Translations under genes and position numbers: made by a program
Shown: positions 22,591 to 41,029 of the stretch, in pieces
Layout: each line of letters opens with the position of its first letter
How positions within the stretch are numbered: the first letter of the stretch is position 1
Origin: Nitrospirota bacterium
GTDB taxonomy: Bacteria > Nitrospirota > Nitrospiria > Nitrospirales > Nitrospiraceae
Direction: 5' to 3'
Assembly (NCBI GenBank): GCA_963701855.1
Contig: CAVPBK010000009.1
Coordinates: 256,001-320,000, forward strand
DNA length: 64,000 bases
Notes under the pieces: generated by a model
What the model was told of the DNA's origin: nothing
Databases searched by the model: none
Seen by the model: only the letters and a program-made list of their open reading frames with translations

Positions 22591-25065
22591 TTATGGCACC
22601 GGACACGGCTTCACATTCCAAATGTCTTCTGCGTACTCCGCGATCGTACGGTCGCTGGAGAACTTCCCTGAGCCGGCGATATTCAAGATCGCTTTGCGTA
22701 CCCATCCATCCGAGTCGTAGTAAAGGTCGCACAGCTTCCGGTCGGCCCTGAGATAGGCCGTGAGGTCCGCCAGATGCATATAATGGTCTCCACCCGTCAG
22801 CAACGTGTGCCGCAGCGGTTCAAAGACGCCCGGTTCATACTGGTTGAAGTAGCCGGAGAAGATCAGGTCCAGCGCCGCGCGGGTTTCCGCCTCATTGTCA
22901 TAATGCCATTGTGGTCTGTACCAGTCCTTGCTGCCGGCCACCTGGTCCGCCGTGAGGCCGAACATGAAGAAGTGCTCCTCGCCCACTTCTTCTGCCATCT
23001 CGATGGTCGCGCCGTCGCGCGTCCCCAGCGTCAAGGCTCCGTTCATCATGAACTTCATGTTGCTCGTACCGCTGGCCTCGTACCCGGCTGTCGAAATCTG
23101 GTTGGAGACATCGGTGGCTGGAATCAGCCGCTCGGCAAGCGACACACAGTATTCCGGCAGGAACACGACCTTGAGTCGTCCGCGGACGATCGGATCTCCA
23201 TCGATGGTGCCGGCCAGATTATTGATGAACTTGATGATGACCTTGGCCAAATGGTAGGCCGGCGCCGCCTTGCCGGCAAAGAAAAATGTCCGCGGGGCTA
23301 TATCGAGGTTCGGATTCTCCCGCAACCGGTTGTACAATACGACGATGCGCAGCGCATTGAGCAGTTGCCGCTTGTATTCATGGATGCGTTTCACCTGGCA
23401 ATCGAAGATGCTATCCGGATCGACCGTTTGCCCGGATGTCGTCTTGAGCCACTGAACAAACTGCGATTTCGCATCGCGCTTGGCTTTACGGACCGCGTCG
23501 CGAAAGCCCTTGTCGCTGGACAGTTTTTTGAGCTTGCTCAGTTGACTGAGATCGGTAATCCATCCGTCTCCGATGGCTTCGGTGATGGCGTGCGAGAGCG
23601 CGGGGTTCGCCAGCAGCAACCAGCGTCGCGGCGTCACGCCGTTGGTCTTGTTGTTGAACCGCTCCGGAAACATCTCCGCCAGGTCCTTGACCGTCATCGT
23701 GCGGAGCAATCCTGAGTGAATGGCGGCCACGCCATTCGTACTATGCGTTCCAACGATGGCGAGATTGGCCATACGGACTTTACGCGTCGCGCCCTCCTCG
23801 ATGAGGCTTACGTTGGCGAGACGGCCTTCGTCGTCGCCGAATCGGACGCGCGCTTGGTCAAGATGCCGGCGGTTGATCTCGTAAATAATTTCCAAATGAC
23901 GCGGCAGCAAGAGCTTGAACCATTCCAGCGGCCATTTTTCCAATGCTTCGGGCAGCAGTGTATGGTTGGTATAGGCAAGCGATCGTTGAGTCAGATCCCA
24001 AGCATGGTCCCAACCGAGCTGCGCGTCGTCCAGAAGAATCCGCATCAGCTCGGGGACGGCCATCGTCGGATGCGTATCGTTCATCTGGATGGCGACTTTC
24101 TCGGGCAGGGCGTTCCAGTCGGTGTTGCCGCGCCGGAAGCGCCGCACAAGGTCGCCCAGCGAGCAGGCGACGAGGAAATACTCCTGCAGGAACCGCAACC
24201 CCTGGCCTCGCACTGTGGAGTCGTCGGGATAGAGCACACGCGTCAGGGACTCGGCCGCAAGCGTTCCAGCCAACGCGGCTACGAAATCACCGCTGCTGAA
24301 TCGCTGGAAGTCGAAGTAATCCGGTACCGCCGCAGCCCAAAGCCGGAGTGTATTGATGTTCTTTCCACCGTACCCGACGACGGGACGGTCGAACGGGATG
24401 CCGATAATGCTGGACGTCCGCCCAGGGATCATGCGTAATACCCCGTCGTGCAGCCCGAACGAGCAGTTCAATTTTACTTCAACCGATTCCTCGAGCCGTG
24501 CCACTTCCCAGGGATCAGGACGACGCAACCAATTATCCGGCTGTTCGCATTGCCAGCCATCCTTGATTGTTTGCTTGAAGATTCCGTATTCGTAACGAAG
24601 TCCATAACCCATCCCGGGAATCTGCATCGTCGCCATCGAATCGATGAAACAAGCCGCCAGCCGGCCAAGCCCGCCGTTGCCTAAACCGGCATCCGGCTCC
24701 CTTTCGACCAATGCCAGGAAGTCGACGCCTTTTATTTTCGCGGCCTCCATCGCCAATGGGTTGAGCAAGGCATTGGTGACGTTGTTCGCAAGCGACCTCC
24801 CAAGCAGAAATTCCATCGACAGGTAATACACCCGCTTGGCATTCTTCTGCTCGTAGGTATTTTCTGTCTTAAGCCAGCGTTGTGAAATGATATCGCGGAT
24901 CGACCGTGCTGCCGATTCAAACTGCTCCCGCAAATCGGCCTTCTTGGGATCAACGACATGGTCGAAAATCAGATGCCGCTCAAAGAGGGCGTCTTTCGTG
25001 CCCGAGAACTGGATGAGATCCGCTCCATATTGTTGAAGAATTTCGTTCTGGCGGTTCTTTTCCAT
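22591..25065 (-). CDS. glgP: glycogen/alpha-glucan phosphorylase
   Basis: Motifs [36 protein letters not shown] (PLP lysine). Confidence 0.96.
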
Positions 25066-25075
25066 AATTCCTCCA

Positions 25076-25167
25076 ACTGGTCTGTCTCGTCTATCTGGTC
25101 CGTCTGGTTAAACAAGATCAACCAGATGAACCAGACAAACCGACTCAGCTTTTCCGCAGCCTGTTAA
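25076..25167. repeat. family A repeat, partial
   Basis: Short inverted 9-mer array ending CTTTTCCGCAGCCTGTTAA, overlapping the xfp stop codon. Confidence 0.65.
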
Positions 25168-27572
25168 ACGTTGTCTCCCTCCGTCGTGGTCCTCTTCCTC
25201 GTTGCCGCTTTCACCTTACCCCATTGCCAGTCGGTGATTTCCGGCATGTCTTCGCCATACTTCGCGATGTATTCTTTGTGCTCGATCAGTTTGTCGCGAA
25301 TCGCCTGCTTGAAATAGGCGGCGCGGGACCCGAGTTGCGGCAGCCGATCGATCACGTCGGCGGCGAGGTGAAACCGGTCGAGATCGTTCATCACCACCAT
25401 GTCGAACGGCGTGCTCGTCGTGCCTTCTTCCTTATAGCCTCGCACATGCATGTTCTTATGGTTCGTCCGCCGATAGGTGAGCCGATGGATGAGCCACGGG
25501 TAGCCGTGGAAGGCAAACACGATCGGCTTGTCCTTGGTGAACAGCGCATCGAAGTCCAGGTCGGACAGGCCATGCGGGTGCTCGCTCTGCGGCTGCAGTT
25601 TCATTAAATTGACGACGTTGATGACGCGGATCTTCAGCTCCGGGAGATGCTGACGAAACAGATCCACGGCGGCCAGCGTCTCCAGCGTCGGCACGTCTCC
25701 GCAACAGGCCATGACGACATCAGGATCTCCCCCCTTGTCGTTGCTGGCCCATTCCCAGATTCCGATGCCCGCCGTGCAGTGCTTGATCGCCTGGTCCATC
25801 GTCAACCATTGCGGAGCAGGCTGCTTGCCCGCGACGATGACGTTCACATAATTACGGCTGCGCAGACAGTGATCGGTGACCGACAGAAGCGTGTTGGCAT
25901 CCGGCGGCAGATAGACGCGCACTACCTCCGCTTTCTTGTTCACGACGTGATCGATGAAGCCGGGGTCTTGATGGCTGAATCCATTATGATCCTGCCGCCA
26001 GACGTGGGAGGACAAGAGATAGTTGAGCGACGCAATCGGCCGCCGCCAAGGGATGTGGTTGCAGACCTTCAGCCACTTGGCATGCTGGTTGAACATCGAG
26101 TCGATAATGTGAATGAACGCCTCGTAGCAGGAAAAAAACCCGTGCCGGCCGCTCAAGAGATACCCTTCCAGCCACCCCTGGCACTGGTGCTCACTGAGCA
26201 TTTCCATTACGCGTCCGTCAGGGGCCAAATGGTCATCGTATGGATAGCGATCCGCCATCCACGCGCGGTTGGTGACCTCCAGCGCATCTTGCCAGCGGTT
26301 TGAGTTGTTCTCGTCCGGACTGAACAGACGGAAATTACGGCTCTCCCTGTTCATCTTCATCGTGTCGGCCAGGAACTTTCCCATGTGGCGGGTGGACTCG
26401 GCCTCAATGGCGCCGGGTGTCGTGACCTTGACGGCATAGTCGCGGAAGTCCGGCAGACGCAAGTCCCTGAGCAGGAGGCCGCCGTTGGCGTGCGGATTGG
26501 CGCTCATGCGGCGCGTACCCTTCGGCGGAAGATCAGCGAGCTCAGGCATCAGCCGGCCGGTTTTGTCGAACAGCTCCTCCGGCTTGTAGCTCTTCATCCA
26601 CTTTTCGAGAATTTTCACGTGCTCGGGCTTCTCGTGCATTTCACCCATCGGCACCTGGTGGCTACGCCAGTAGTCCTCGCACCGTTTGCCGTCGATTTCC
26701 TTCGGACAGGTCCACCCCTTGGGCGAACGGAGGATGATCATCGGCCAACGCGGCCGCTCCTTCACACCTTTCGTCCGCGCCTGGGTCTGGATGCTGCGGA
26801 TTTCATCCATGCAGGTGTCGATGGTGTCAGCCATGAGCTGGTGCATCTTGGCCGGATCACTGCCCTCGACAAAATGGGGCGTGTATCCATAGCCGCGGAA
26901 GAGCTGATCCAATTCTTCGTGGCTGATACGAGCCAACACGCAAGGATTGGCGATCTTGTACCCGTTCAGGTGCAGGATCGGCAGCACGGCTCCGTCGGTC
27001 GCCGGATTGAGGAACTTGTTGGAGTGCCAGGAAGTCGCCAATGGTCCGGTTTCCGCCTCGCCGTCGCCGACCACGCAGGCGACGATCAGGTCGGGATTGT
27101 CATACGCAGCCCCGTATGCGTGAGAAACCGCATACCCCAATTCGCCGCCTTCGTGTATGGAGCCGGGGGTCTCGGGCGCCACGTGGCTGGGAATGCCTCC
27201 GGGGAACGAGAACTGCTTGAACAGCCGCTGCATGCCCTCCTCGTCCTGTGCGATATTCGGATAGACCTCCGAGTAGGTGCCTTCCATGTAGGTATTGGCG
27301 ACGATGCCGGGGCCGCCATGACCCGGACCGATAATGTAGATCATGCTGAGGTCGCGTGCCTTGATCGCTCGATTCAGATGGGCATAGATGAAATTCAGGC
27401 CCGGGGTGGTGCCCCAGTGACCCAGCAGCCGCGCCTTCACATGCTCCTTACTCAGCGGCTTCTTCAGCAGCGGGTTATCGTGCAGATAAATCTGTCCCAC
27501 CGAGAGATAGTTCGCCGCCCTCCAATAGGCATCAATCAATTTCAGTTCCTTCTGCGATATCGGATTTCCCAT
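25164..27572 (-). CDS. xfp: xylulose-5-P/fructose-6-P phosphoketolase
   Basis: Motifs [49 protein letters not shown]; start ATG 27572 after an RBS-like purine run. Confidence 0.96.
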
Positions 27573-27615
27573 GACCTCTCCTTTCCCTCTGATTGATATA
27601 CTCGGCTCTGTTGAC

Positions 27616-28842
27616 TTATGGACGTCCGCCTCGCACGCACTGAACCGTCTCCCTGGCGATCCAGGTTTCTTCGTCCGCCGCGACCACGTAAGCCGCCAAC
27701 CGCGATCCATCCACACTGATTTTTGCTGCACGACCAGGCGCAAGCCCGATCGCCGCTCGATTAAAGTCGGGATCGAGCCTCAAGCCGCACCATTCCATCT
27801 TCTTGCAAATCCGGTCTCGAATCTCCGGTGCGTTTTCTCCGATCCCACCTCCGAAGACGATGGCATCGGCGCCGCCTAACAGGGCAAGGTAGGAACCGAG
27901 ATACTTGCGCGCCCGATAGCAGAATAGATCAATGGCGAACTCCGCCCGTTTGTCCTGCTCCTGCTCGGCCGCGCGAAGCAGCTCCCGCATGTCGTTTGAG
28001 CGACCTGACAGTCCGAGGAGGCCCGACCGCTCGTTGAGCCACCGCTCGACTTCTGCTGCTTCGACCTTCTCCCGGTCGGACAAGTAGCCGACGATGGAGG
28101 CATCGACATCGCCCGAACGTGTCCCCATCACCAACCCCTCCAACGGGGTGAACCCCATCGAGGTTTCGACCGACCGGCCTTGTGCGATCGCGGCGATGGA
28201 GCAGCCATTGCCCAACTGCAGGGTGATCAGACGCGCCTCCTCCAAGGGAGTCCCCGTCACTGCCGCATATCCATCCGCGAGCGAAGCGTGAGCTATCCCA
28301 TGGAATCCGTAGCGGCGGATCCGGTGCCGCTCTGCCAGCTCAACAGGGAGCGCATACTGCCTGGCGACTTCCGGCATGGTCTGGTGAAAGGCCGTGTCGA
28401 ACACTGCCACCATCGGTCGCGTCGGGCCAAAAGCCGCCCGCGCTCCGCGAATCCCTGCGAGGCACGAGGGATTATGCAGGGGCGCCAACTCGGACAGCGC
28501 CTCGATTCCGGCCTCTACCTGCTCAGTAATCATTGTGGACTTCACAAACTGATCTCCTCCGTGCACCACCCGATGTCCGACCGCTTCGATCTGGCCCAGA
28601 GATCCGGCCAGTCGATCGAGCAGAACACGCAACGCATGCGCATGGTCCCGAATCTCCAACGTCGTCGTCGAACGGTCTACAGCCTGTCCCGTCACCTCGA
28701 AGCTTGCGACGCTCCCGATGCCCTTCACGGCGCCTTGGAGCAATGCCGGCCGAGTTGTCAGTACGCCCCCCGGCTCTTCGACCACCTCCACGAGCCGAAA
28801 CTTGATCGACGAACTCCCGCTGTTGATCACCAGAACCTGCAT
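27616..28842 (-). CDS. ackA: acetate kinase, copy 1
   Basis: Motifs [40 protein letters not shown]. Confidence 0.93.
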
Positions 28843-28880
28843 GTCAATGCTGAAGCCTCGCGGCATGTGCCCGGAAGATA

Positions 28881-29956
28881 TCAGTCATCGTGCCAGTCCG
28901 AGCGATGCGCGGCTGCACTCCGCAGCGGCCGGTTCGTGCCTCCAAGGCTTGTCGGTATAGCTGCCGATGGCGGCTCGCTGTTGCATTTGGCCCGATGATG
29001 GAAGGCCAGCTGGGCGGCTTTCAGGTTTTCGTTTTTGCCGATGCCAGGCTTCCAGCGCCACGATCCTGCAGGGCGCGACCGTATGAAAAACTGATCGTCC
29101 AGGGTTTCGGTCAGATCCAGGCGATTGATGGCATCGAGATGCGCGGTCGCAAGTCACGCTCGGCTGCCCGCCGGACAAGAACACGATGCCGGGAACCGCC
29201 GCCGGCACATGACGGCGCAAACAGCGCAACGTGGCCGTTGCGACCTCCTGCACGGAGGCCTGCTTGGGACAAACTTTTCCGGCGATCACCATGCTGGGTT
29301 TCAGAGAGCATGCCTTCCAGCCGGACGCACTGCTCGAAGAGCGCGTCGAAGACCGTATGGAGCACCCAACTCGTGACCTCCTCGCAGCGTTCGATGGTGT
29401 GAGACCCGTCCATGAGAACCTCCGGCTCCACAATCGGCACGATGCCTTGTTCCTGGCACAGGGCGGCATACCGGGCCAGCGCATGGGCGTTGACGTTCAC
29501 GCACATCGGGCTGGGCAGTGCGTCGGTGATGCGAATGACCGCCCGCCACTTGGCGAATCGCGCGCCTATGGCCGCGTATTCCTTCAGGCGGTCCCGAAGT
29601 CCATCGAGTCCTTCGGTCATCTTTTCCTCCGGTGAACCGGTAAGCACCTTTGCACCGGTATCCACTTTGATCCCCGGAATAATCCCCTGCTTGGATAACA
29701 CTTCAGCCAACGGTATGCCCGCGGCGTTCTTCTGACGGATGGTCTCGTCATACATGATGACGCCGCTGATAAAAGCGGCAGCTCCCGGCGTCGTAAAAAA
29801 CATTTCGCGATAGGTGCGTCGGCTGTCCTCGGTGGAGGTAATCTTCAATGCGTCGAACCGCTTGGTGATTGTGGAAACTGTTTCATCTGCTGCCAGAATG
29901 CCCTTGCCTTCGGCTATCAACTCTCTTGCCGTCTGTTCCAGTTCTTGTCGTCCCAT
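28881..29956 (-). pseudogene. class I fructose-bisphosphate aldolase; 3' part broken by several frameshifts
   Basis: KGILAADE, FAKWR, PIVEPEV in frame; [25 protein letters not shown] and HRAKCN recoverable only by switching frames from about 29305. Confidence 0.88.
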
Positions 29957-30304
29957 ATGGATGCCCCCCAATCTCTGGATTCGTTACTCCTCAATCCCCC
30001 CCGACCCAGTCCCTCTTATTTCCGGCAGATCCATCCGAAATATCTAAAAGAGGAAATACCTTATACATCGCTCTAAGTAGTTGCAACGGTAAATTTTTTG
30101 TAAATTTCCCGTCCTGTTCAGCTCGTCAAGCAAGAGCCTTGCCGTAAATACGTAGCGGGAATGAGTACGCTCTTTTCCTCAGAAACTTTAACTTTTCCAG
30201 AAGTTCAGAAGGGGACAGGCTTCAGATGGAAGGAGGTCCATGGGGAGAAACGCAACAAGCCGCAAGGGGAGTTGTCCTCATTCTCCTCACCCGGGAAAGA
30301 CTTA

Positions 30305-30819: not shown

Positions 30820-31641
30820 TCAGTATACCTTCAGGCCTTCCGCGGCAAATTGAGCGCACACGCGTTGAACCAGTTCATGAGTAGGGGGCTCTGTATTTTG
30901 GAGAGTGTAGTTGAGGCCAAGTTCCTTCCATTTGAATCGGCCCAGCTGATGAAAAGGCAGGACGTCGACGCGCTCGATATTCCCCAGACCGGCCGCGAAC
31001 TTGGCGATATGCGAAACGTCCTGCGGGTCGTCGGTTAATGCCGGCACCAGGACAAAGCGGAGCCAGCAAGGCCGTTTGCGGGCAGCCAGCCGGCGCGCGA
31101 ATTCAAGTACAGGGCCGACATCTTTACCGGTCAGATGTCGATGGCGTTCTGCATCCCACGTCTTAATATCGAGCAGCACGAGGTTGATCTTCTCCAACTC
31201 GCCGTCACTGAGGCGATCGCCGAGAAAGCCGTTGGTGTCCAACGCAGTGTGGACCCCCATTTCCTGCGCGGCGGCAAATAACCTGACGACAAACCGGTCC
31301 TGCATCAGTGGCTCGCCACCGCTGATGGTGAGTCCCCCGGACATCACCTTCAGTCCGTGCCGATATTTTCGAAGCTCCTCGATCGCGCGTGAGAGGGGGA
31401 CGGGCGTGCCATTCGTCAGGCTCCATGTATCTGGATTGTGGCAATACAGACATCGGAACTGGCAACCAGACAGCCATGCGACGACACGCATTCCGGGTCC
31501 ATCGACGGCCGATCCAGTGGTAAATGAATGAATGAAGCCGATGTCTCCGCTCTCGAGCGCTTGTTTGATGACCGACTCGGATACTTTGCTACCTTTGTTC
31601 ACCCGGAGCTCGAACGGGCTTTTTGCCTCGAGCAGACTCAT
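30820..31641 (-). CDS. pflA: pyruvate formate-lyase activating enzyme (radical SAM)
   Basis: VDGPG, CQFRCLYCHNPDTW (CxxxCxxC), SGGEPL, LPFHQLG; adjacent to pflB. Confidence 0.96.
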   Translation of the reverse strand: MSLLEAKSPFELRVNKGSKVSESVIKQALESGDIGFIHSFTTGSAVDGPGMRVVAWLSGCQFRCLYCHNPDTWSLTNGTPVPLSRAIEELRKYRHGLKVMSGGLTISGGEPLMQDRFVVRLFAAAQEMGVHTALDTNGFLGDRLSDGELEKINLVLLDIKTWDAERHRHLTGKDVGPVLEFARRLAARKRPCWLRFVLVPALTDDPQDVSHIAKFAAGLGNIERVDVLPFHQLGRFKWKELGLNYTLQNTEPPTHELVQRVCAQFAAEGLKVY

Positions 31642-31850: not shown

Positions 31851-34118
31851 TCATGACCCATGGAATGTGCGATTGATGACATCCAGTTGTTGCTCCCGCG
31901 AGAGGCGCACGAAGTTGACGGCATAGCCCGAGACCCGAATCGTCAAGGACGGATATTTCTCTGGATGATCCATGGCATCAAGCAGGGTTTCACGGTTCAG
32001 TACGTTCACGTTCATGTGATACCCCGTAGCACCAAAAAACGCGTCGAGTATGCCACGTAGGTTCTTGATTCTATCCTCTTCGATCCTCCCAAGGCCCTCC
32101 GGCAGTAACGTTGTCGTGAGTGAAATGCCGTCAGCGGCGTCGCGGTATGGAATTTTGGCCACCGAAGCAGCCGATGCATGAACGCCGTGCTTGTCGCGTC
32201 CGTGCATCGGATTGGCGCCTGGAGCGAACGGCTGCCCCTTCCTCCGCCCATCCGGGGTGTTGCCGGTATTCTTTCCGTAGACAACATTTGACGTGATGGT
32301 CAGGATCGATTGTGTGTGCAGGGCATGTCGATAGGTCGGATATTTCCTCAGCTTCTTCATGAACGTACTGACAACCCAGGTCGCCATCTGGTCGACGCGG
32401 TTGTCGTTATTTCCAAACTGCGGGAACTCGCCTTCGGTTTGATAGTCGGTAATCAGGCCCGTTTGATCGCGGATCACGCGGACCTTGGCATATCGGATAG
32501 CGGAGAGGCTATCGGCAACCACCGACAGACCTGCCATACCAAACGCCATAGTTCGCAACGGTGCATAATCGTGGAGGGCCATTTCAATCCGCTCATATGC
32601 ATATTTGTCGTGCATGTAGTGGATGATATTCATGGCATTGACGTAGACCCCGGCGAGCCAGTCCATCATCGTCTCGAAGCGATCGATCATGTCCTCGATA
32701 TCGAGGTACTCGCCCTTGACTGGCTCGGTTGCCGGACCCACCTGCTTGCCGGTGAGTTCATCGCGGCCACCATTGATCGAGTACAAGAGGCATTTTGCCA
32801 TATTGGCTCGAGCGCCGAAGAACTGCATTTGTTTGCCGACCAGCATCGGAGAGACACAGCAGGCGATGGCGCCGTCATCCCCCCAGGTACTTCGCATAAT
32901 CTCGTCGTTTTCGAATTGAATTGAACTGGTGTCGATCGCCACTTTTGCAGCAAAACTGCGAAATCCATCGGGAAGACGCGGGGAATACCAGATCGTCAGG
33001 TTTGGTTCCGGCGCCGGACCGAGATTGGAGAGCGTTTGCAGATACCGAAAGCTTGTCTTGGTGACGAGTGGCCGTCCGTCATCTCCCATGCCGGCAATCG
33101 ATTCGGTGACCCATGTTGGGTCACCCGCAAACAGTTCATCGTATTCAGGCGTGCGCAAAAAACGAACGATTCGCAGCTTGATGACAAAATCATCGATGAT
33201 TTCCTGCGCCTGCTGTTCCGTGATCGCGCCGGCCGCAAGGTCGCGCTCGAAATAGATATCCAGAAACGTCGAGGTCCGCCCCAAAGACATCGCCGCGCCG
33301 TTCTGCTCTTTCACCGCAGCCAAGTAAGCGAAGTACAGCCACTGAACAGCCTCGCGTGACGTGCGAGCCGGAACGGAGATATCGAACCCGTACTTCGAGG
33401 CCATCTGCTGAAGTTCCTCGAGTGCGCGAATCTGTTCACTGAGCTCTTCGCGGTCCCGAATGATCTCATCGGTGGACATGGCCGAATCGAGGCCGCATTT
33501 CTCTTCCTGCTTTCGTTCAATGAGCCGGGCGACACCGTAGAGGGCAACTCGGCGATAATCGCCGATGATTCGACCTCGACCATAGGCGTCAGGAAGCCCG
33601 GTCAAAATATGCGAACTGCGGCAATTTCTGACGTCCGCCGTGTAGGCATCGAACACGGCTTCGTTATGAGTCTTTCGATATTTGGTAAAGGTCTCAACTA
33701 GATGTGGCTCTGGTTCGTATCCGTATGTCTTCAGCGCGTTGAGAACCATCCGGAATCCGCCGTTTGGCATGATTGCCCGCTTGAGCGGCGCATCGGTTTG
33801 TAGGCCGACGATCACTTCATGATCTCGATCGATGTACCCTGGAGCATGCGCCGTGATGGAGCTGGGAATCTGAGAGATATCGAGTACCCCCTTCTTGCGC
33901 TCCTCCACAAAAAGGTCAGTGAGGATTTTCCAGATCTTCTTGGTACGCTCGGTTGCCGGAGCGAGAAATGAATGATCTCCTTCGTATGGTTTGTAATTCT
34001 GCTGGATAAAGTTGCGAACATTGATTTCCCTTTGCCAAAGACCCGGATTGAATCCCTCCCAGCCTGGAGCTATCTTGGCGCGGTTGGATTCAGGTTTCGC
34101 TGAAACAGAGGTAGCCAT
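31851..34118 (-). CDS. pflB: pyruvate formate-lyase (formate C-acetyltransferase)
   Basis: [17 protein letters not shown], active-site IACCVS, glycyl-radical loop IRVSGYAV. Confidence 0.97.
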
Positions 34119-34134: not shown

Positions 34135-35314
34135 TTAACGCAATTTAAGCAGGTTTGCCGTATGCCGGGCGATCATCAATTCCTCATTGGTGGGGATCAC
34201 CCACACGGAGACCTTGCTTTGGAGCGTCGAGATCCGCGGACCTTTTCGGGCATTTGCCTGCGTATCGAGTGCGACGCCCAACCATGCCGACGCTTCGCAG
34301 ATCCGCTGGCGAATCGCCGGCGAGTTTTCGCCGATGCCGGCGGTAAACACGAGGGCATCGACCCCGCATAGAACGGCGGCGAGTGCACCGATCTCCTTGG
34401 CGGCGCGATAGACAAAGTAGTCCACCGCAAGCCGCGCTTCCGGCTCGGCTCGTCCCAGCAGGTCGCGCATATCGTTGCTGATCCCTGAGATCCCCAAAAG
34501 ACCGGACTTTTTGTACAGCACAGTTTCTACTTCTTTCGCTGAGAGTTTCAGGCCTTGAAAGAGATGCAGCACGACGCCTGGATCGAGCGTGCCGGGCCTC
34601 GTACCCATACAGAGACCATCAAGCGGAGTGAAGCCGAGCGTGCAATCGACGCTTTTCCCTCCTCGCAGCGCGCATAAGCTCGCCCCGCTTCCGAGATGTG
34701 CGACGATGACGCGGGCATTGGCAATTTCTGGAGCGACCTCCGGCAAAACCGACGCGATATATTCGTAAGACAAGCCATGAAAGCCGTATCGTTGCAGACC
34801 TGCTTGGCGAAGGTCACGCGGGAGCGGGATCAGTTCGGCAACGGCGGGTTGTCCACGATGAAAGCTGGTATCGAAGCATGCCACCTGCGGCACATCGGGC
34901 AATCGTTCGGAGACGGCTTCGATGGCTGCCAGATTGTGAGGCTGATGAAGGGGCGCCAGTGGAATCAACTCGCGAAGCTCCGTAAGGACTTTCGGGTTCA
35001 AGATTGTCGGCCCGGCGAAATGCGCCCCACCGTGGACGACGCGATGGCCGACGCCCACCACTCGCGAGCCGCCATATTTCGATCTCAGCCACACCGCGCT
35101 CGCATTTATGGCCTCACGACCGTCGCGAGCGGCAACATCCTGGTTTGCCAAGCGGTTCTCCGTCGGCGTCTTTCACAGAGAGACGAGGTGACGTGCCGAT
35201 TCCTTCGATTTGGCCCCGCGCTTCCACGCGCCAGGCTTCGCCAGCCGGTCGCTGAAACACGCAGAACTTCAGACTCGACGATCCTGCATTGACCACCAGC
35301 CCATAGTCGTCCAC
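34135..35314 (-). pseudogene. ackA: acetate/propionate kinase, copy 2, with +1 frameshift near 35158 (possibly a sequence error)
   Basis: N-terminus VNAGSSSLKF (GTG 35314 after AGGAGG) and body [19 protein letters not shown] lie in different frames. Confidence 0.88.
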
Positions 35315-35323
35315 GGCCACCTC

Positions 35324-36256
35324 CTACGGCCTCTTCCGCCGCGCATGAGCCACCAATACTGCAACGGCACAACTGGCGATCCTGGCACGCACGCTATCGG
35401 CCCGGCTGGTTAGGATAATGGGAACCCGTGCACCCAGGACCATGCCTGCGCTGTCGGCTTTGGCAAGAAAGCTCAATTGCTTGGCAAGCATGTTACCCGC
35501 TTCCAAATCAGGGGCGAGCAAGATGTCGGGATCGCCGGCAACCGCGGATTGAATGCCTTTTGTCTCGGCTGCTTCCTTGCTGATGGCGTTGTCAAATGCC
35601 AGTGGTCCATCCAGGATGCCATTCTTGATCTGCCCACGATCAGCCATCTTGCAGAGCGCCGCCGCATCGATCGTGGCCGGCATTTTTGACGTAACAATTT
35701 CAACCGCGGCGAGGATGGCCACCTTGGGTCTTTCCAGACCCAAAGAGACTGCGAGATCGATTGCGTTCTGGCAGATATCAACCTTGTCCTCCAGACCAGG
35801 CGCGATATTGATCGCGCCGTCCGTAATGAGCAGAGGCTTGTGATAAGTCGGGACATCCATGAGGAAGGCGTGGCTGATGCGGCGTCCCGTGCGCAATCCA
35901 CCCTCGCGCGAGACGACCGCGCCCATGAGCTCATCCGTGTGCAGGCTTCCCTTCATCAGAATCTCAGCTCGACCTTCTCGAATGAGGGCAACAGCCTTCT
36001 CTGCTGCCGCATGGCTGTGCGGTACATCGATGATCTCCAGGTTCTTGAGATCGATGCCGGACGCCGCTGCCGTCTTTCTAATGCTGGCGGCTGGTCCAAC
36101 CAACAGCGGTATGATCAATCCTCGCTGGTACGCTTCGACCGCTCCGCTCAAGGCCGTCGCTTCACAGGGATGTGCCACCGCGGTAGGAATTGGCTCAAGA
36201 TTTTCGCACCGCGCAAGGAGTTGTTCGTATTTTCCTGTTCCAGTGGCATAGGTCAT
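35324..36256 (-). CDS. pta: phosphate acetyl/butyryltransferase
   Basis: Motifs LMKGSLHTDE, DGPLAFDNA, PDLEAGNML, LTSRADS. Confidence 0.88.
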   Translation of the reverse strand: MTYATGTGKYEQLLARCENLEPIPTAVAHPCEATALSGAVEAYQRGLIIPLLVGPAASIRKTAAASGIDLKNLEIIDVPHSHAAAEKAVALIREGRAEILMKGSLHTDELMGAVVSREGGLRTGRRISHAFLMDVPTYHKPLLITDGAINIAPGLEDKVDICQNAIDLAVSLGLERPKVAILAAVEIVTSKMPATIDAAALCKMADRGQIKNGILDGPLAFDNAISKEAAETKGIQSAVAGDPDILLAPDLEAGNMLAKQLSFLAKADSAGMVLGARVPIILTSRADSVRARIASCAVAVLVAHARRKRP

Positions 36257-36259
36257 GGC

Positions 36260-37558
36260 TTATCTCCTCCTTGCGTCGGCTGCCGTCGGTGTGGTGCGTG
36301 CTGCCGATCCCGTCTCTTTCAACAACATGGTCAACACGACCGCGATGGCCACGCCATAGAGAAGAGAGACAAAGGTAGACTGGTAATGCTCCGCCTTCAT
36401 TGGCGAAGCTCCCCCTGACGCGGTGTACAGAATCCAACTGAACACCGGTCCGAGTAAGGCGCTGAACGTAAAATTCAGGAAGTTGATCACACCAGTCGCG
36501 GTGCCACCAAAGTGCGGCGGGTTGGCCTCTTTGATCACGGTGTAGGGCAACATCGCCGCACCGGATGCGATGCCGGCGATAAGGCCTACCGAATACGGAG
36601 GGAACAGGCCCGTCTTCCCGTAGAGGATCCAGCCCAGACACGCGAGCAGCACCAGGGAGGCGCTGATGATCACCGGCTTGCGCCGTCCGATTCGATCGGA
36701 AATAAGTCCAAGCAGGGGGCAACCAATGATCCAACCGAAGGGAACTGCGGCCGAGCGCATGACTGCCGAGCCGTACTCCAGACCATGCGCTTCCTGGAGG
36801 TAGCGGACACCCCAAATCATGTCGAAGATCGTTGTCGGGATGAATAGCAACCCGGAGATCACGCCACACAAAATCGACTGCGGATTCTTGAACACGGTTT
36901 TGAAACCTCTGGCCGTGCTCTTCAATCCACTACCGGGCAGTTTGGTCGGTTCGTCTTTCGGAAGGAGGACAAACAAGATTGCGCCAATCAACAAACCGCC
37001 GACTCCCATTCCTGTCCAAAAGATATTCCAGGCTAACCCGTGCCCGATCAGAGGCCCGACGAGGAACTGTCCTGCCGATCCGCCCCCCATTCCAAACATC
37101 TGGGTGGCGCCGATCAACGTGGCGGCACGCGACGGCGAAAAGTTTGTGGTTGCGATATAGATCGCGCCTACAAGCGCAAAGACTCCGCCGGCGCCCTGCA
37201 TGAACCTCCCGACACTCGCGAAATTGTGGTTGCCTGTCGCAAACAGCAACGCCCCAATACCGACGACAGCCGCCGCTCCTGGCAATAGGCGGCGCGGCCC
37301 AAGTCGATCCATCGCCGCTCCAGCGACCAAACTGAAGGGCGAGTATCCGTAATAGAACAAGCCGACGAGGGAAGCGACAGCGAGCGGGCTGATTCCGAAC
37401 GCATCGCTCAGCTCCGGCATCATCACCGCCGGAGCCGAGCGAAGAGCGTACTGGTAGAAATAGTAGATCGCCGTTAACATCCAGGCAATGACAGCGAGAC
37501 GGACGCTCTTGTGTAAATCTCTCTTGCCTGTCACTTCAATAGTGGCTGCCGTTTCCAT
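36260..37558 (-). CDS. MFS transporter
   Basis: About 12 TM segments; motif A GAAMDRLGPRR and SDRIGRRK. Confidence 0.92.
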   Translation of the reverse strand: METAATIEVTGKRDLHKSVRLAVIAWMLTAIYYFYQYALRSAPAVMMPELSDAFGISPLAVASLVGLFYYGYSPFSLVAGAAMDRLGPRRLLPGAAAVVGIGALLFATGNHNFASVGRFMQGAGGVFALVGAIYIATTNFSPSRAATLIGATQMFGMGGGSAGQFLVGPLIGHGLAWNIFWTGMGVGGLLIGAILFVLLPKDEPTKLPGSGLKSTARGFKTVFKNPQSILCGVISGLLFIPTTIFDMIWGVRYLQEAHGLEYGSAVMRSAAVPFGWIIGCPLLGLISDRIGRRKPVIISASLVLLACLGWILYGKTGLFPPYSVGLIAGIASGAAMLPYTVIKEANPPHFGGTATGVINFLNFTFSALLGPVFSWILYTASGGASPMKAEHYQSTFVSLLYGVAIAVVLTMLLKETGSAARTTPTAADARRR

Positions 37559-37585: not shown

Positions 37586-39136
37586 TCAACAGAGCGTCAC
37601 GGAGACGGCCAGTCCGGCCTCGCTCGTTTCCTTGTACTTACTGTTCATTTCCTTGGCGGTCTGAGCCATCGCCGTGATCGTGGCGTCCAAATCAACCCGA
37701 TGTCTGCTTTCGATCTCATTGGTGGCGATCACGTAAGCGGTCCAGGCCTTGACGGCGCCGAAAGCGCATCGCTCAATGCACGGGACCTGAACGAATCCGG
37801 CGACCGGGTCGCAGGTCATTCCCAGATGATGTTCCAGCGCCGACTCCGCCGCGTTCTCGACGACCCGGGGACTCGCGTCGTATGCGGTCGTGAGGAGTGC
37901 CGCGGCCATCGCCGACGCGACGCCGATCTCCGCCTGGCAGCCACCCTCGGCGGCAGATAGCGTCGCATTGTGCTTGCACAGGTAACCAATCGCCGCCGCC
38001 GCAAGCATGCCTTGGCGGATCTTATCTGCCGGAACCTTGCGCTGTTCGCTCAGCCCGTACACCAGGGCTGGCATGACTCCGGCGGACCCTCCTGTCGGCG
38101 CGGTGATGACGAGGTGGCCCCGCGCGTTTTCCTCGGACGCCGCCAGCGCCCACGCCGAGACGACACCAATGGCGCGATCCGTCTCGTATTTATCGTCCAT
38201 GGCGCGTTTGAACACGGTTGCCGCCTTGCTGTGCAGCTTGATGGGGCCAGGCAACACGCTGTCTTCCGGAGCACTCAACCCTGACTTCACAGCGGCGATC
38301 ATCGCGTTCGTGATCTTGTCGATGAAGGCATAGACCTCCGCCTCGCTCCTCCCGGGGATCGCCATCTCGTTGGCGAGGATGACTTGCGCAATCGTCAAGT
38401 TGTTTTTCTCCGCGTGCTGCCGAAGTTCTTTCATCGTCGAGAACGGGTACTTCGGCTGGTTTTTCTTCGGAGGCGTATAGCCTTTCCACTCGATGAATCC
38501 GCCGCCCACAGAGTAGTACTCTTGCTCCAGCAGCACATCCTTTCCTGCCAGGAGCTTGCAGGTCATGGTGTTGGGGTGCGGGAAGTCGCCCTTGGGGGCA
38601 TCGTAGACAATGTCCTTGAGACTCACGCTAACGGTCTTGCTGCCGAGCTTCACCGGAAACGACTGGTCAGGCTTATCGCGCAGGCTGTCGAGAAACGCGG
38701 GGTCAACGGTTGCCGGCTCCTTCCCGACCAACCCCGCGAGCGAGGCACGCTCCGTACCGTGCCCTTTGCCCGTCGCACTGAGGCTGCCATACAAGTGAAC
38801 CTTGAGCGCTGTTGCTTTGTCGAGTGTGTCCGCCGGCAGTTTGGTACAGCGCTGGTAGAATTCGTAGGTAATGCGCATCGGGCCGATCGTGTGCGAGCTC
38901 GAGGGACCAGGCCCGACTTTGTAGAATTCGTCCAGCGTCGTCATCACCGGCCCCTTTTTCTCCTTCACGACGTTCAGATCGTTTGAGAGCGGCGGCGGCG
39001 GCCCTGCAGTGGACCGCTTTGTTCTCTCCTCAGCGCTGACCGGTTGACCCAGTATCACCGCAGTTGCGCCGATCAACGCGCTTCGCATTAAGAAAGTGCG
39101 ACGATCGACACCAGGCGGGATTTCTTGCGAAATCAA
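37586..39136 (-). CDS. sdaA: Fe-S L-serine ammonia-lyase (single chain) with twin-arginine signal-like leader
   Basis: VGPGPSSSHTIGP, APTGGSAG, GGCQAEIG, GMTCDPVAG..VPCIERC; leader DRRTFLMRSALIGATAVILGQPVSA. Best RBS/ATG is at 39233, one base out of frame. Confidence 0.92.
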   Translation of the reverse strand: MISQEIPPGVDRRTFLMRSALIGATAVILGQPVSAEERTKRSTAGPPPPLSNDLNVVKEKKGPVMTTLDEFYKVGPGPSSSHTIGPMRITYEFYQRCTKLPADTLDKATALKVHLYGSLSATGKGHGTERASLAGLVGKEPATVDPAFLDSLRDKPDQSFPVKLGSKTVSVSLKDIVYDAPKGDFPHPNTMTCKLLAGKDVLLEQEYYSVGGGFIEWKGYTPPKKNQPKYPFSTMKELRQHAEKNNLTIAQVILANEMAIPGRSEAEVYAFIDKITNAMIAAVKSGLSAPEDSVLPGPIKLHSKAATVFKRAMDDKYETDRAIGVVSAWALAASEENARGHLVITAPTGGSAGVMPALVYGLSEQRKVPADKIRQGMLAAAAIGYLCKHNATLSAAEGGCQAEIGVASAMAAALLTTAYDASPRVVENAAESALEHHLGMTCDPVAGFVQVPCIERCAFGAVKAWTAYVIATNEIESRHRVDLDATITAMAQTAKEMNSKYKETSEAGLAVSVTLC

Positions 39137-39359
39137 CCGGTCCGCGCGGCCAAGCGGGCCTTCCTGGCCGGCCTCATGTGTGTGTTCTTCCGAATTGAGA
39201 TCACCAGCCTCGTGTCTTTTCTTTGTTCCTCATGTCGTCCCTCCTTCGTTTGAAGCAATGTAATCTCGTTCGTCAAACTCGTCGACTACCGTGATGAGCG
39301 CAGCCGCCGTTGTTGTGAGCACGGCGCATGTGCGACGCCGGTTCACGGCCGACAAAAGG

Positions 39360-40907
39360 TCACCAATTCCCCAGATTCACGAGGTCGTACTGCAAGACGA
39401 AGTTAAGCCGGATGTCGTCCCCTCGCTCCCCGGTTTTCACCGTATGTTGCCCCCACAAGAGTCCGCCCCCGACCGTGAATCCTGCACCAGGACTGTACAT
39501 CAGATTGCCTTCCGCATACTGGGTGCTCGTGAAGTTACTGTTCGAGTTGAGGGTTACCGTAGGAGACGCGATGTTCGTCGTACTGACATGCAAATATCCA
39601 TAGGTGAATGACGAGCGCCATCGTTCAGCCCAAAAATGCTGATACGAACCAAACGCTCCCCATGCCGGCAGAGCGACAATCGTCCCGTCCGGCTTGACGC
39701 CGACGTCTAGGCCGGTCCCCTCCCCGAGGTCGTTTATGTACCGGGCAATCCCGTCCCCGATGATGCCTTGGACCATGACGTTGTCTTTCTTATAGACCGT
39801 CGCGGCAGCCGACACCATGCCGCCCCATCCGAAGACATGTTTATCAGTCCCCGGAGTGACAAAGCCGCCCAGGTCGCGGAACAACCAGGCATTCTGAATG
39901 TGGAATCGGCTCTGCTCATGGCGGTATCGAAGGACAAAGTCAGGGATCGGGTTGTTTACATTGATGGCTGTGGTTCCACTCGTGACGGTCCCTGGCATTT
40001 GCGTGTTCGGTTGCTCGACAGACACCGCAATATTGTTCTCCTTGTTCATCGCGTAGGTATACCGGACCTGCGGTTGCAGTCTGAAGATCCAGGAGTTCGG
40101 TCCTTCGAAGTCCACCGTGTCCGGAATGGCATCCTGGTCTCCCCAGGCAGTCCAGGTCTGTCCGACGAGTACATTCTGCCATTGACCATAAAAATGGCGC
40201 AGCCGGAAGCTGTTCGTCGTATTCGGGCCGTTGTTGAAGTCGTTCTCATAATAGATGCGCAGGGGGCCGTAATTCGTGTTGTTCCTGATTTCGAAGCTGA
40301 TTCTCGACGGAGCCACACTCATGCTGGTGTTGTCGCTTCCCGGATTGGGACCGGTTGGAATCGATGAGGTCACAAATTTGGACGTATTGCCGGCTGGGCT
40401 GAAATCATGAATCACGTCCGTCCTCGCGAACCCCCCGAGCCGCAACATGGTCTCGGTTCCAGGCAGGCGAAAGAATCCCCTGAGTTGAGGATCGAACGGT
40501 GCATTGTCAAGCCGCGGATCGGCGTAGTTGTCTTGGCGCAGCATCCCGCGCTCGCGTTCATGCTCGGGAACTTCGGCGCTCGTACCCGGCGTCGGACGCT
40601 GGTATCCCTCCTCACGGTTGACGTTGCTCTCGCCAACCTTAGGTGAGCCGCGATCTTTCTTCAGTTCCTCCACCATCTGTTCGAGAGACTTCACCCGTTC
40701 TTTTAACGATTCATCCGACGCCGCTGATGGCGCTGGGCCTTGTCCCGGTTTACCCTGATCTTGGGCCACGGAAAAGGTCGGACACAACAGAACAAGAATT
40801 GAGGCGATCGCGAGAATCGTCCGGACTATCGAGGACACGGGACGCCTTCGTGCGTCGGACGGACAGGTTTCGACCATCTCCTTGTTGGTTAGTTGTGATC
40901 TTCTCAT
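39360..40907 (-). CDS. DcaP-like trimeric outer-membrane porin
   Basis: Signal peptide, short coiled coil, then FRLRHFY, GQTWT, DFEGP, QPQVRY, PDFVLRY strands; RBS AAGGAG. Confidence 0.82.
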   Translation of the reverse strand: MRRSQLTNKEMVETCPSDARRRPVSSIVRTILAIASILVLLCPTFSVAQDQGKPGQGPAPSAASDESLKERVKSLEQMVEELKKDRGSPKVGESNVNREEGYQRPTPGTSAEVPEHERERGMLRQDNYADPRLDNAPFDPQLRGFFRLPGTETMLRLGGFARTDVIHDFSPAGNTSKFVTSSIPTGPNPGSDNTSMSVAPSRISFEIRNNTNYGPLRIYYENDFNNGPNTTNSFRLRHFYGQWQNVLVGQTWTAWGDQDAIPDTVDFEGPNSWIFRLQPQVRYTYAMNKENNIAVSVEQPNTQMPGTVTSGTTAINVNNPIPDFVLRYRHEQSRFHIQNAWLFRDLGGFVTPGTDKHVFGWGGMVSAAATVYKKDNVMVQGIIGDGIARYINDLGEGTGLDVGVKPDGTIVALPAWGAFGSYQHFWAERWRSSFTYGYLHVSTTNIASPTVTLNSNSNFTSTQYAEGNLMYSPGAGFTVGGGLLWGQHTVKTGERGDDIRLNFVLQYDLVNLGNW

Positions 40908-41029
40908 GGCAATTCTCCTTGTCGTTGAGGTCACTGCCCACTGTCTGCCGCAGCCTTGCATGGCTGAATGGGAAAGGATCCCTTGAATCGCAGATCGAGC
41001 GGTGTCTTGTCTGGTCTCGGCTCAGCATG

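Follow-up and report, generated by a model that had tools for sequence, protein, structure and literature searches.

The window analysed here is a stretch of 64,000 nt from a Nitrospirota genome (GenBank assembly GCA_963701855.1, contig CAVPBK010000009.1, forward-strand positions 256,001 to 320,000). Its minus strand carries an operon that reads, in order, porin, sdaA, MFS, pta, ackA, pflB and pflA (Table 1). The subject of this analysis is sdaA, the gene of an iron-sulfur (Fe-S) L-serine dehydratase whose product begins with a leader of the twin-arginine translocation (Tat) type. The readable part of the gene is an open reading frame (ORF) of 516 codons, free of stops and 91-98% identical to its relatives, which are mostly 532-550 aa long and start about 31 aa further upstream.

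The gene is a type-2 (single-chain) [4Fe-4S] L-serine dehydratase with predicted serine-deaminating activity. Its product matches TIGR00720 (sda_mono) at 415.2 bits, above the curated equivalog cut-off of 345.1 bits, and residues 70-513 cover positions 5-450 of the 450-position profile. SDH_beta (residues 70-218) and SDH_alpha (residues 244-510) follow one another in one chain, in beta-then-alpha order, and the catalytic domain begins near T66, where the alignment with the Legionella pneumophila L-serine dehydratase (4RQO; E 2.1e-93) also starts. An alignment of 50 sequences shows that the GPSSSH motif (residues 77-82) and the cysteines C400, C442 and C453 are invariant, while C516 at the C-terminus is at least 90% conserved. 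All four cysteines align to cysteines of 4RQO. From the structure work on that enzyme, the first three are presumably the ligands of the [4Fe-4S] cluster.

The Legionella chain thus shares with the window protein the domain order, the three cluster cysteines, GPSSSH and the C-terminal cysteine, but does not extend over its 65-residue leader and linker. Identity of the window protein to other full-length SdaA representatives is about 40-48%. SdaA, SdaB and TdcG of Escherichia coli belong to the same family and have the same predicted reaction, from L-serine to pyruvate and ammonium; they are cytoplasmic and carry no signal peptide. The profiles NF011614 and NF011598 score the window protein at 318 and 300 bits, far under their equivalog cut-offs of 873 and 942. 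The host genome holds no other SdaA, and its count of SDH_alpha genes is one.

The 65 residues that precede the catalytic domain are M, ISQEIPPGV, DRRTFLMR, SALIGATAVILG and QPVSA, followed after a predicted cut by the linker EERTKRSTAGPPPPLSNDLNVVKEKKGPVM. The initial annotation had quoted the leader as VDRRTFLMRSALIGATAVILGQPVSA before EE and read it as a Tat consensus (RRxFL) with a hydrophobic region, an AxA-like cleavage site and a Pro-rich linker. Each of these elements was recovered, the hydrophobic stretch and the PPPP-containing linker as written above and the cleavage site as V-S-A. Set against the Tat consensus S/T-R-R-x-F-L-K, the motif here is D-R-R-T-F-L-M-R. TIGR01409 (NCBIfam TAT_signal_seq) was run on the isolated leader, since HMMER filters discard such short matches in full-length proteins; it gives 20.1 bits against a curated cut-off of 16.7 bits (E 5.6e-4), with residues 10-35 spanning the whole profile. 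The leader has Q (LGQPVSA) where a basic c-region residue could stand, a residue that helps avoid the general secretion (Sec) pathway and is frequent in Tat signals without being obligatory. It also lacks a lipobox of the form [LVI][ASTVI][GAS]C, reading LGQP with no Cys.

An AlphaFold (AF2) model with a mean pLDDT of 87.9 places residues 12-29 in a detached leader helix and falls below a pLDDT of 50 in the linker at residues 49-59. Among relatives the linker is Pro/Ala-rich and ranges from 33 to 58 aa, and the mean Kyte-Doolittle value of the h-region across the clade is 1.58. The host genome encodes the machinery such a leader would need, with two matches to TatC (205 and 194 bits) and four to TatA_B_E (56-60 bits).

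The initial annotation had assigned the leader to 39030..39233. The peptide itself was confirmed, on the minus strand, but the ORF and the ATG at 39233 are in different frames. Read from this ATG, the window gives MRNKEKTRGW and then a stop, while relatives read MSNKEKTQAGDLNSEE in frame. At the DNA level the site is ACA-CGAG-GCT in the window and ACA-CAG-GCT in a relative.

Table 1. Features of the sdaA operon in the window, and genes for exported RidA proteins at three related loci
Feature	Position	Strand	Remarks
Shine-Dalgarno sequence, GGAGGG	39239..39244	-	5 nt upstream of ATG 39233-39231; same layout in locus L008
One extra base compared with relatives	39211..39212	.	throws ATG at 39233 out of frame
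sdaA, single-chain [4Fe-4S] L-serine dehydratase precursor	37586..39233	-	full gene from ATG at 39233, broken by 1-nt insertion
Uninterrupted sdaA ORF	37586..39136	-	516 aa from TTG
Predicted Tat signal peptide readable in the window	39032..39136	-	from TIGR01409 (20.1 bits), conservation and codon analysis
Conserved end of n-region, ISQEIPPGV		-	V10 at 39109-39107
Twin-arginine motif, DRRTFLMR	39106-39083	-	D11-R12-R13 at 39106-39098; F15-L16 at 39094-39089
h-region, SALIGATAVILG	39082-39047	-	S19-G30
c-region, QPVSA	39046-39032	-	V33-S34-A35 at 39040-39032; predicted cut after V-S-A, between 39032 and 39031
Linker, EERTKRSTAGPPPPLSNDLNVVKEKKGPVM	38942..39031	-	between predicted cleavage site and catalytic domain; contains PPPP
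Catalytic beta + alpha domains	37589..38941	-	4RQO match over aa 66-516
Presumed cluster cysteine C400	37939-37937	-
Presumed cluster cysteine C442	37813-37811	-
Presumed cluster cysteine C453	37780-37778	-
C-terminal cysteine C516	37591-37589	-
DcaP/Porin_2-like outer-membrane channel	39360..40961	-	Pfam DcaP 51 bits, Porin_2 50.6 bits; signal peptide, coiled-coil N-terminus
MFS_1 transporter	36260..37558	-	directly downstream of sdaA; weak best likeness to TIGR00893 (anion:cation symporter subfamily)
pta (phosphate acetyltransferase)	35324..36256	-	PF01515, 142 bits
ackA (acetate kinase)	34135..35310	-	PF00871 from profile position 57 on; N-terminus LVVNAGSSSLKF in other frame
pflB (pyruvate formate-lyase, glycyl-radical)	31851..34118	-	PFL-like 695 bits, Gly_radical 120 bits
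pflA (PFL-activating radical-SAM enzyme)	30820..31641	-	Radical_SAM + Fer4_12
Exported RidA	L030:7451-8059
Exported RidA	L031:3974-4408
Exported RidA	L043:6095-6532

Conservation of the leader and extent of its clade

Relatives of the window protein were confirmed in 559 cases among species-level genomes. The best 80 of these form the set of related genome loci on which all locus counts rest, and the 120 top-scoring proteins supply the motif counts at the protein level. Of the 80 loci, 76 have DRRxF; of the remaining four, three are cut by the end of a contig and one (L075) is broken. The same motif is found in 116 of the 120 protein hits. The initial annotation had staked its proposal on the conservation of RR in close homologues, and RR is kept in every assessable locus except the one broken copy. 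In that copy, a stop or frameshift lies just 5′ of the linker (L075:4500-4650) and no RR leader can be read; pflB and pflA stand upstream of sdaA at this locus instead of downstream.

The pattern of substitutions within the leader was compared over 26 codons in the 76 loci, with the window as reference. Differences at codon positions 1, 2 and 3 number 544, 195 and 1212. At D, R, R, F, R(+7) and A(+9) every difference is silent: each of these residues has between 8 and 60 synonymous differences and none that alters the amino acid. This pattern argues that the leader is translated and that selection acts on precisely the positions of the Tat consensus.

Downstream of the h-region, the leaders fall into two types. 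A c-region like that of signal peptidase I substrates is found at 43 loci, of which 38 have a small-x-small site and 34 have R or K in the c-region. The other 33 loci carry a lipobox, [MIL]xGC, in which the Cys, counted from the D of DRR, is always at +20. A maximum-likelihood tree built quickly from the mature domains has many weakly supported forks; on it the c-region label switches at least 17 times, which is to be taken as a rough figure. An exchange of signal-peptidase-I site and lipobox at a fixed distance from RR is otherwise hard to explain and thus points to a real export signal. Judged from these sequence patterns, the RR leader is not a product of chance.

Two genomes hold one copy of each leader type (L030 with L036, and L025 with L034). 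The mature domains of the paired copies are 94-95% identical (429/450 and 424/450), while their leaders and linkers are only 58-59% identical. This suggests a soluble and an anchored paralogue in each genome, between which gene conversion may have acted to keep the sequences alike.

The leader-bearing proteins form one clade of 77 rows, with an SH-aLRT support of 100 and a stem of 0.42. Its members are at least 70% identical to one another and at most 48% identical to other full-length SdaA proteins. Among 1.84 billion cluster representatives (50% identity), the clade comes down to essentially one full-length cluster (P0121, 75% identical). Its spread over taxonomic labels is wide, covering about eight phyla overall. 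Acidobacteriota account for 58 of the 80 loci and Pseudomonadota for nine; the rest are labelled Planctomycetota, Myxococcota, Verrucomicrobiota, Binatota and Nitrospirota, with one ‘cyanobacterium’ bin. The well-separated clade, the two c-region types and the Tat genes agree with the earlier proposal that Fe-S serine deaminases include an exported subfamily, with export itself as the predicted element. A clade of this size with a conserved export signal would be new when set against the textbook picture of cytoplasmic, oxygen-labile enzymes.

Gene calls obscure the leader in some of these proteins. Four of the 120 top hits (P0002, P0034, P0035 and P0037) are called without it, and P0002 is the host genome's own protein, at 500 aa. 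The annotated start in the window lies at 39086-39088, at the conserved internal Met of FLMRSA, so that the RR motif is lost. Localisation predictions miss the leader in proteins that gene callers have trimmed in this way.

Leaders of RR or KR type also open three distant SdaA proteins that are 41-45% identical to the window protein. These are P0130 (MTLRRTFLKMAGASALMLA, with MTLRRTFLK...), P0127 (MDRRDFCKLAVLS, with MDRRDF...) and P0148 (KRCFLKNCAFGCAALGC, with ...KRCFLK...). TIGR01409 stays below its cut-off for P0130 (16.1 bits) and P0148 (15.3 bits) and has no match in P0127. These leaders hint that export signals may have been gained independently within the SdaA family.

The operon and a proposed periplasmic route from serine

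Genes for fermentation of pyruvate accompany sdaA at many of the loci. Matches on the same strand downstream are found for the MFS transporter, as the immediate neighbour of sdaA, at 44 of the 80 loci, for pta at 37, for ackA at 41 and for pflB at 40; the 4.5-kb flank of the survey is seldom long enough to reach pflA. The operon would convert serine to pyruvate, pyruvate to acetyl-CoA and formate, and acetyl-CoA to acetate with formation of ATP. E. coli tdcABCDEFG likewise joins a dehydratase, a transporter, a glycyl-radical formate-lyase and an acyl kinase, which together gain one ATP from each amino acid when oxygen is absent. In contrast to tdc, the operon described here has a Tat leader on its first enzyme, an attached gene for an outer-membrane porin, and other families of transporter and regulator. 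The partner transporter is an MFS protein, unlike SdaC and TdcC of E. coli, which belong to another family.

The enzyme is probably made as a Tat precursor and exported, and periplasmic deamination of serine would feed a fermentation based on pyruvate formate-lyase (PFL). The probability of this reading is put at roughly two in three. The cluster would be inserted and the enzyme would fold in the cytoplasm; because cluster loading and folding precede transport, Tat would be needed, and TatABC would carry the folded enzyme across the membrane. A cut by signal peptidase I after VSA is predicted to free a soluble periplasmic enzyme on a flexible linker, whereas the lipobox in about 40% of relatives would lead to a lipoprotein instead. 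Serine would enter via the neighbouring outer-membrane channel and be deaminated to pyruvate and ammonium outside the cytoplasm. Subsequently, pyruvate would re-enter the cell, probably through the adjoining MFS transporter, in what is the weakest step of the scheme. PflB/PflA, Pta and AckA would then ferment it to formate and acetate, with a gain of one ATP.

The host is an amoA-bearing member of the Nitrospiraceae that groups with Nitrospira. Its genome contains a gene of the AmoA/PmoA family (309 bits, contig C5:108602-109306, L094), and a gene for ATP synthase gamma lies 3 kb away from the operon; its 40 best relatives are labelled Nitrospira or Nitrospiraceae and are up to 96% identical. 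Among 200 genomes of the same family, ten have an SdaA match. Three of these are of the Tat type (91, 88 and 76% identity, in three genera) and the other seven are leaderless, at 40-41% identity. No match to ammonia monooxygenase (AMO) was found in any of the three Tat-type genomes, and operon and amoA occur together only in the host genome among those searched. No foreign island is visible in the base composition around the operon. The operon is a rare accessory in this lineage and probably entered it by horizontal transfer.

Known exported systems resemble parts of the proposed scheme. Hydrogenase small subunits, NrfC, DmsB-type subunits and Rieske proteins are Fe-S proteins that carry an RR leader and are exported by Tat; their clusters must be inserted before transport and carry electrons. 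The cluster of the window protein would instead be catalytic, substrate-binding and of the hydro-lyase type, and we know of no exported catalytic Fe-S enzyme of this type. Periplasmic deamidases such as asparaginase II (AnsB) and the Campylobacter periplasmic glutaminase and gamma-glutamyltranspeptidase (GGT) follow the same logic as the one proposed here. They take the nitrogen off an amino acid in the periplasm, and the carbon skeleton is imported. Unlike the window protein, these are Sec-exported, cofactor-free hydrolases and not Fe-S lyases. At one related locus (L013), an asparaginase with a signal peptide is encoded two genes from the Tat-type sdaA.

Competing explanations and what export would mean

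What weighs against export and periplasmic deamination begins with the window's own copy of sdaA, which is frameshifted, and extends to the known habits of the enzyme family, the scores of related leaders, the transporter and the host. A gene that is truly frameshifted here, whose product would be absent or poorly made from the TTG at 39136, is unlikely. The extra base is present in the assembly, and no sequencing run of the exact strain was found against which to check it, the best run sharing 0.45 of the sampled words. The TTG has no ribosome-binding site and leaves a shortened n-region, the frame of the ATG at 39233 ends after ten codons, and decay of a rare accessory operon is conceivable. 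Against such decay stands the remainder of the gene, stop-free and highly similar to its relatives, and the company it keeps. Within 10 kb, sdaA, ackA and a class-I fructose-bisphosphate aldolase (28885-29971, minus strand) each have one single-base frameshift in an ORF that is otherwise intact and highly similar to relatives. The ackA gene is split near 35160, and the shift near 29480 leaves the aldolase as a pair of overlapping ORFs. Such a run of three frameshifts within 10 kb of otherwise intact genes points to indel errors of the assembly. Related strains also lack the extra base. A 1048-nt contig from a 97%-identical strain (run X2) spans the site without one base at 39212, a 151-nt contig from another run (X4) lacks one base at 39211 with only about 27 nt on one side, and two genomes of the same family read the start of sdaA in frame. 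The extra base at 39211/39212 is therefore most probably an assembly error. Programmed frameshifting at 39201-39212 was considered and rejected by reasoning, as relatives read in frame without a shift site and a slip on the codons that precede the TGA is not plausible.

The enzyme could also stay in the cytoplasm, with the RR leader as a conserved extension of some other role (membrane association by the MFS protein, chaperone docking or regulation) and with the MFS protein importing serine or dipeptides that contain it. To our knowledge, all characterised SdaA, SdaB, TdcG and Legionella enzymes are cytoplasmic, no enzyme with a dehydratase-type cluster is known outside the cytoplasm, and where a transporter is encoded beside sdaA, it usually imports serine, E. 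coli sdaC being an example. The dehydratase-type cluster, with its exposed iron, is oxygen-labile; PFL works only without oxygen, and the strain of placing such a cluster outside the cytoplasm is eased because the PFL context also demands anoxia. The leader has its own irregularities. Its n-region, at about 45 aa, is of unusual length and conserved in part, and this may hint at a different role. TIGR01409 is above its cut-off in two of five clade relatives, below it in two and without a match in one, and three relatives searched at full length have no match to Pfam TAT_signal, even with E allowed up to 10. The transporter has no relative in the Protein Data Bank (PDB), either by single sequence or by a 22-sequence profile. 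Its NCBIfam matches lie far below all cut-offs, and the best of them, in all 22 members tested, are to organic-anion transporters (TIGR00893, best E 2.2e-26, then PgtP). The protein Atlas automatically names its cluster ‘MFSD1 dipeptide transporter family’, a name that could not be confirmed and that would fit import for a cytoplasmic enzyme. Should the MFS protein prove to import serine, cytoplasmic deamination would gain. As things stand it is improbable, for it leaves unexplained the repeated exchange of signal-peptidase-I site and lipobox at a fixed RR distance, the absolute conservation of the exact Tat consensus positions, the basic c-region residue at 34 of 43 loci, the variable Pro/Ala-rich tether, and the exported RidA, asparaginase and porin neighbours. 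Very improbable is an exported enzyme that acts on L-threonine, D-serine or a periplasmic serine derivative. The long stem of the clade, its distance from other full-length SdaA proteins and the placement of the gene outside a fermentation operon at about half of the loci would suit a change of substrate, but the TIGR00720 equivalog cut-off is exceeded, GPSSSH and the four cysteines of the Legionella enzyme are all kept, and the PFL/Pta/AckA context requires pyruvate. As for the host, a search of 30 genomes of the same genus with the window protein returned none with any SdaA match, which leaves the role of the enzyme in this organism uncertain.

Periplasmic deamination ahead of a PFL-based fermentation would be a novel mode of amino-acid use in soil bacteria, with deamination outside and import of the keto acid. 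The periplasm would then house a catalytic [4Fe-4S] hydro-lyase, a new class of Tat cargo, and the host would have a fermentative and organic-nitrogen option that is unexpected for a nitrifier. A more far-reaching version is a long shot. In it, the exported dehydratase would release ammonia in the periplasm for AMO, would be the first non-redox catalytic Fe-S hydro-lyase outside the cytoplasm, and would support serine fermentation without oxygen. AMO is thought to take its substrate in the periplasm, and a direct route from amino acids to nitrification would follow if this version were true. Full-text searches of the literature, with subscription-only papers lying outside them, found no exported or Tat-dependent Fe-S serine dehydratase and no report of this operon in Nitrospira. 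Two articles that share search terms (PMC5082522 and PMC12817590) are unrelated, as judged by their matching passages.

Neighbouring families and further gene clusters

The DcaP-like channel that precedes sdaA in the window belongs to a family (fam1) found at 18 of the 80 loci. A second exported family, counted with a fixed profile and an E limit of 1e-10, occurs at 27 of the 80 loci and lies directly downstream of sdaA at 24 of them. An iterative HMM search for this second family was discarded, its rounds 3-4 having drifted and drawn in sdaA ORFs via Pro/Ala-rich stretches. Examples are L014:6262-8004, L024:6233-7975, L025:6211-7752 and L055:6104-7660. Each protein opens with a signal peptide, continues through a coiled-coil or a Pro/Ala-rich stretch and closes with about 400 aa that end in ...TVLAF. 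No Pfam match beyond coiled-coil noise was obtained for the family; its clusters in the protein Atlas are named phosphate-selective porin O/P (OprO/P-like), and these cluster names serve as a lead. A gene of one or the other family is present near sdaA at 38 of the 80 loci. No homology between the two families is detectable (hhalign probability 0.3%).

The neighbours of sdaA are also informative at loci that lack the fermentation operon. Proteins of the RidA/YjgF family with Sec signal peptides adjoin the Tat-type sdaA at three of the 80 loci (Table 1). An exported RidA, as a quencher of enamines and imines, would form a matched pair with an exported serine dehydratase. At L013:2530-8755, a secreted subtilase, the Tat-type sdaA, a lyase of the aspartase/fumarase class with a signal peptide and the signal-peptide asparaginase lie together, in an island that may serve amino-acid deamination in the periplasm. 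Export of an aspartase-like lyase would be unusual in its own right. At three loci (L016:6170-6910, L018:6164-6823 and L031:6128-6871), a gene resembling 2OG-Fe(II) oxygenases (PF13759) directly follows the Tat-type sdaA. Downstream of the operon in the window, positions 22591-28866 of the minus strand encode a second acetate kinase, a phosphoketolase (XFP) and a glycogen phosphorylase, which would make up a glycogen-to-acetate module beside the serine-to-acetate operon.

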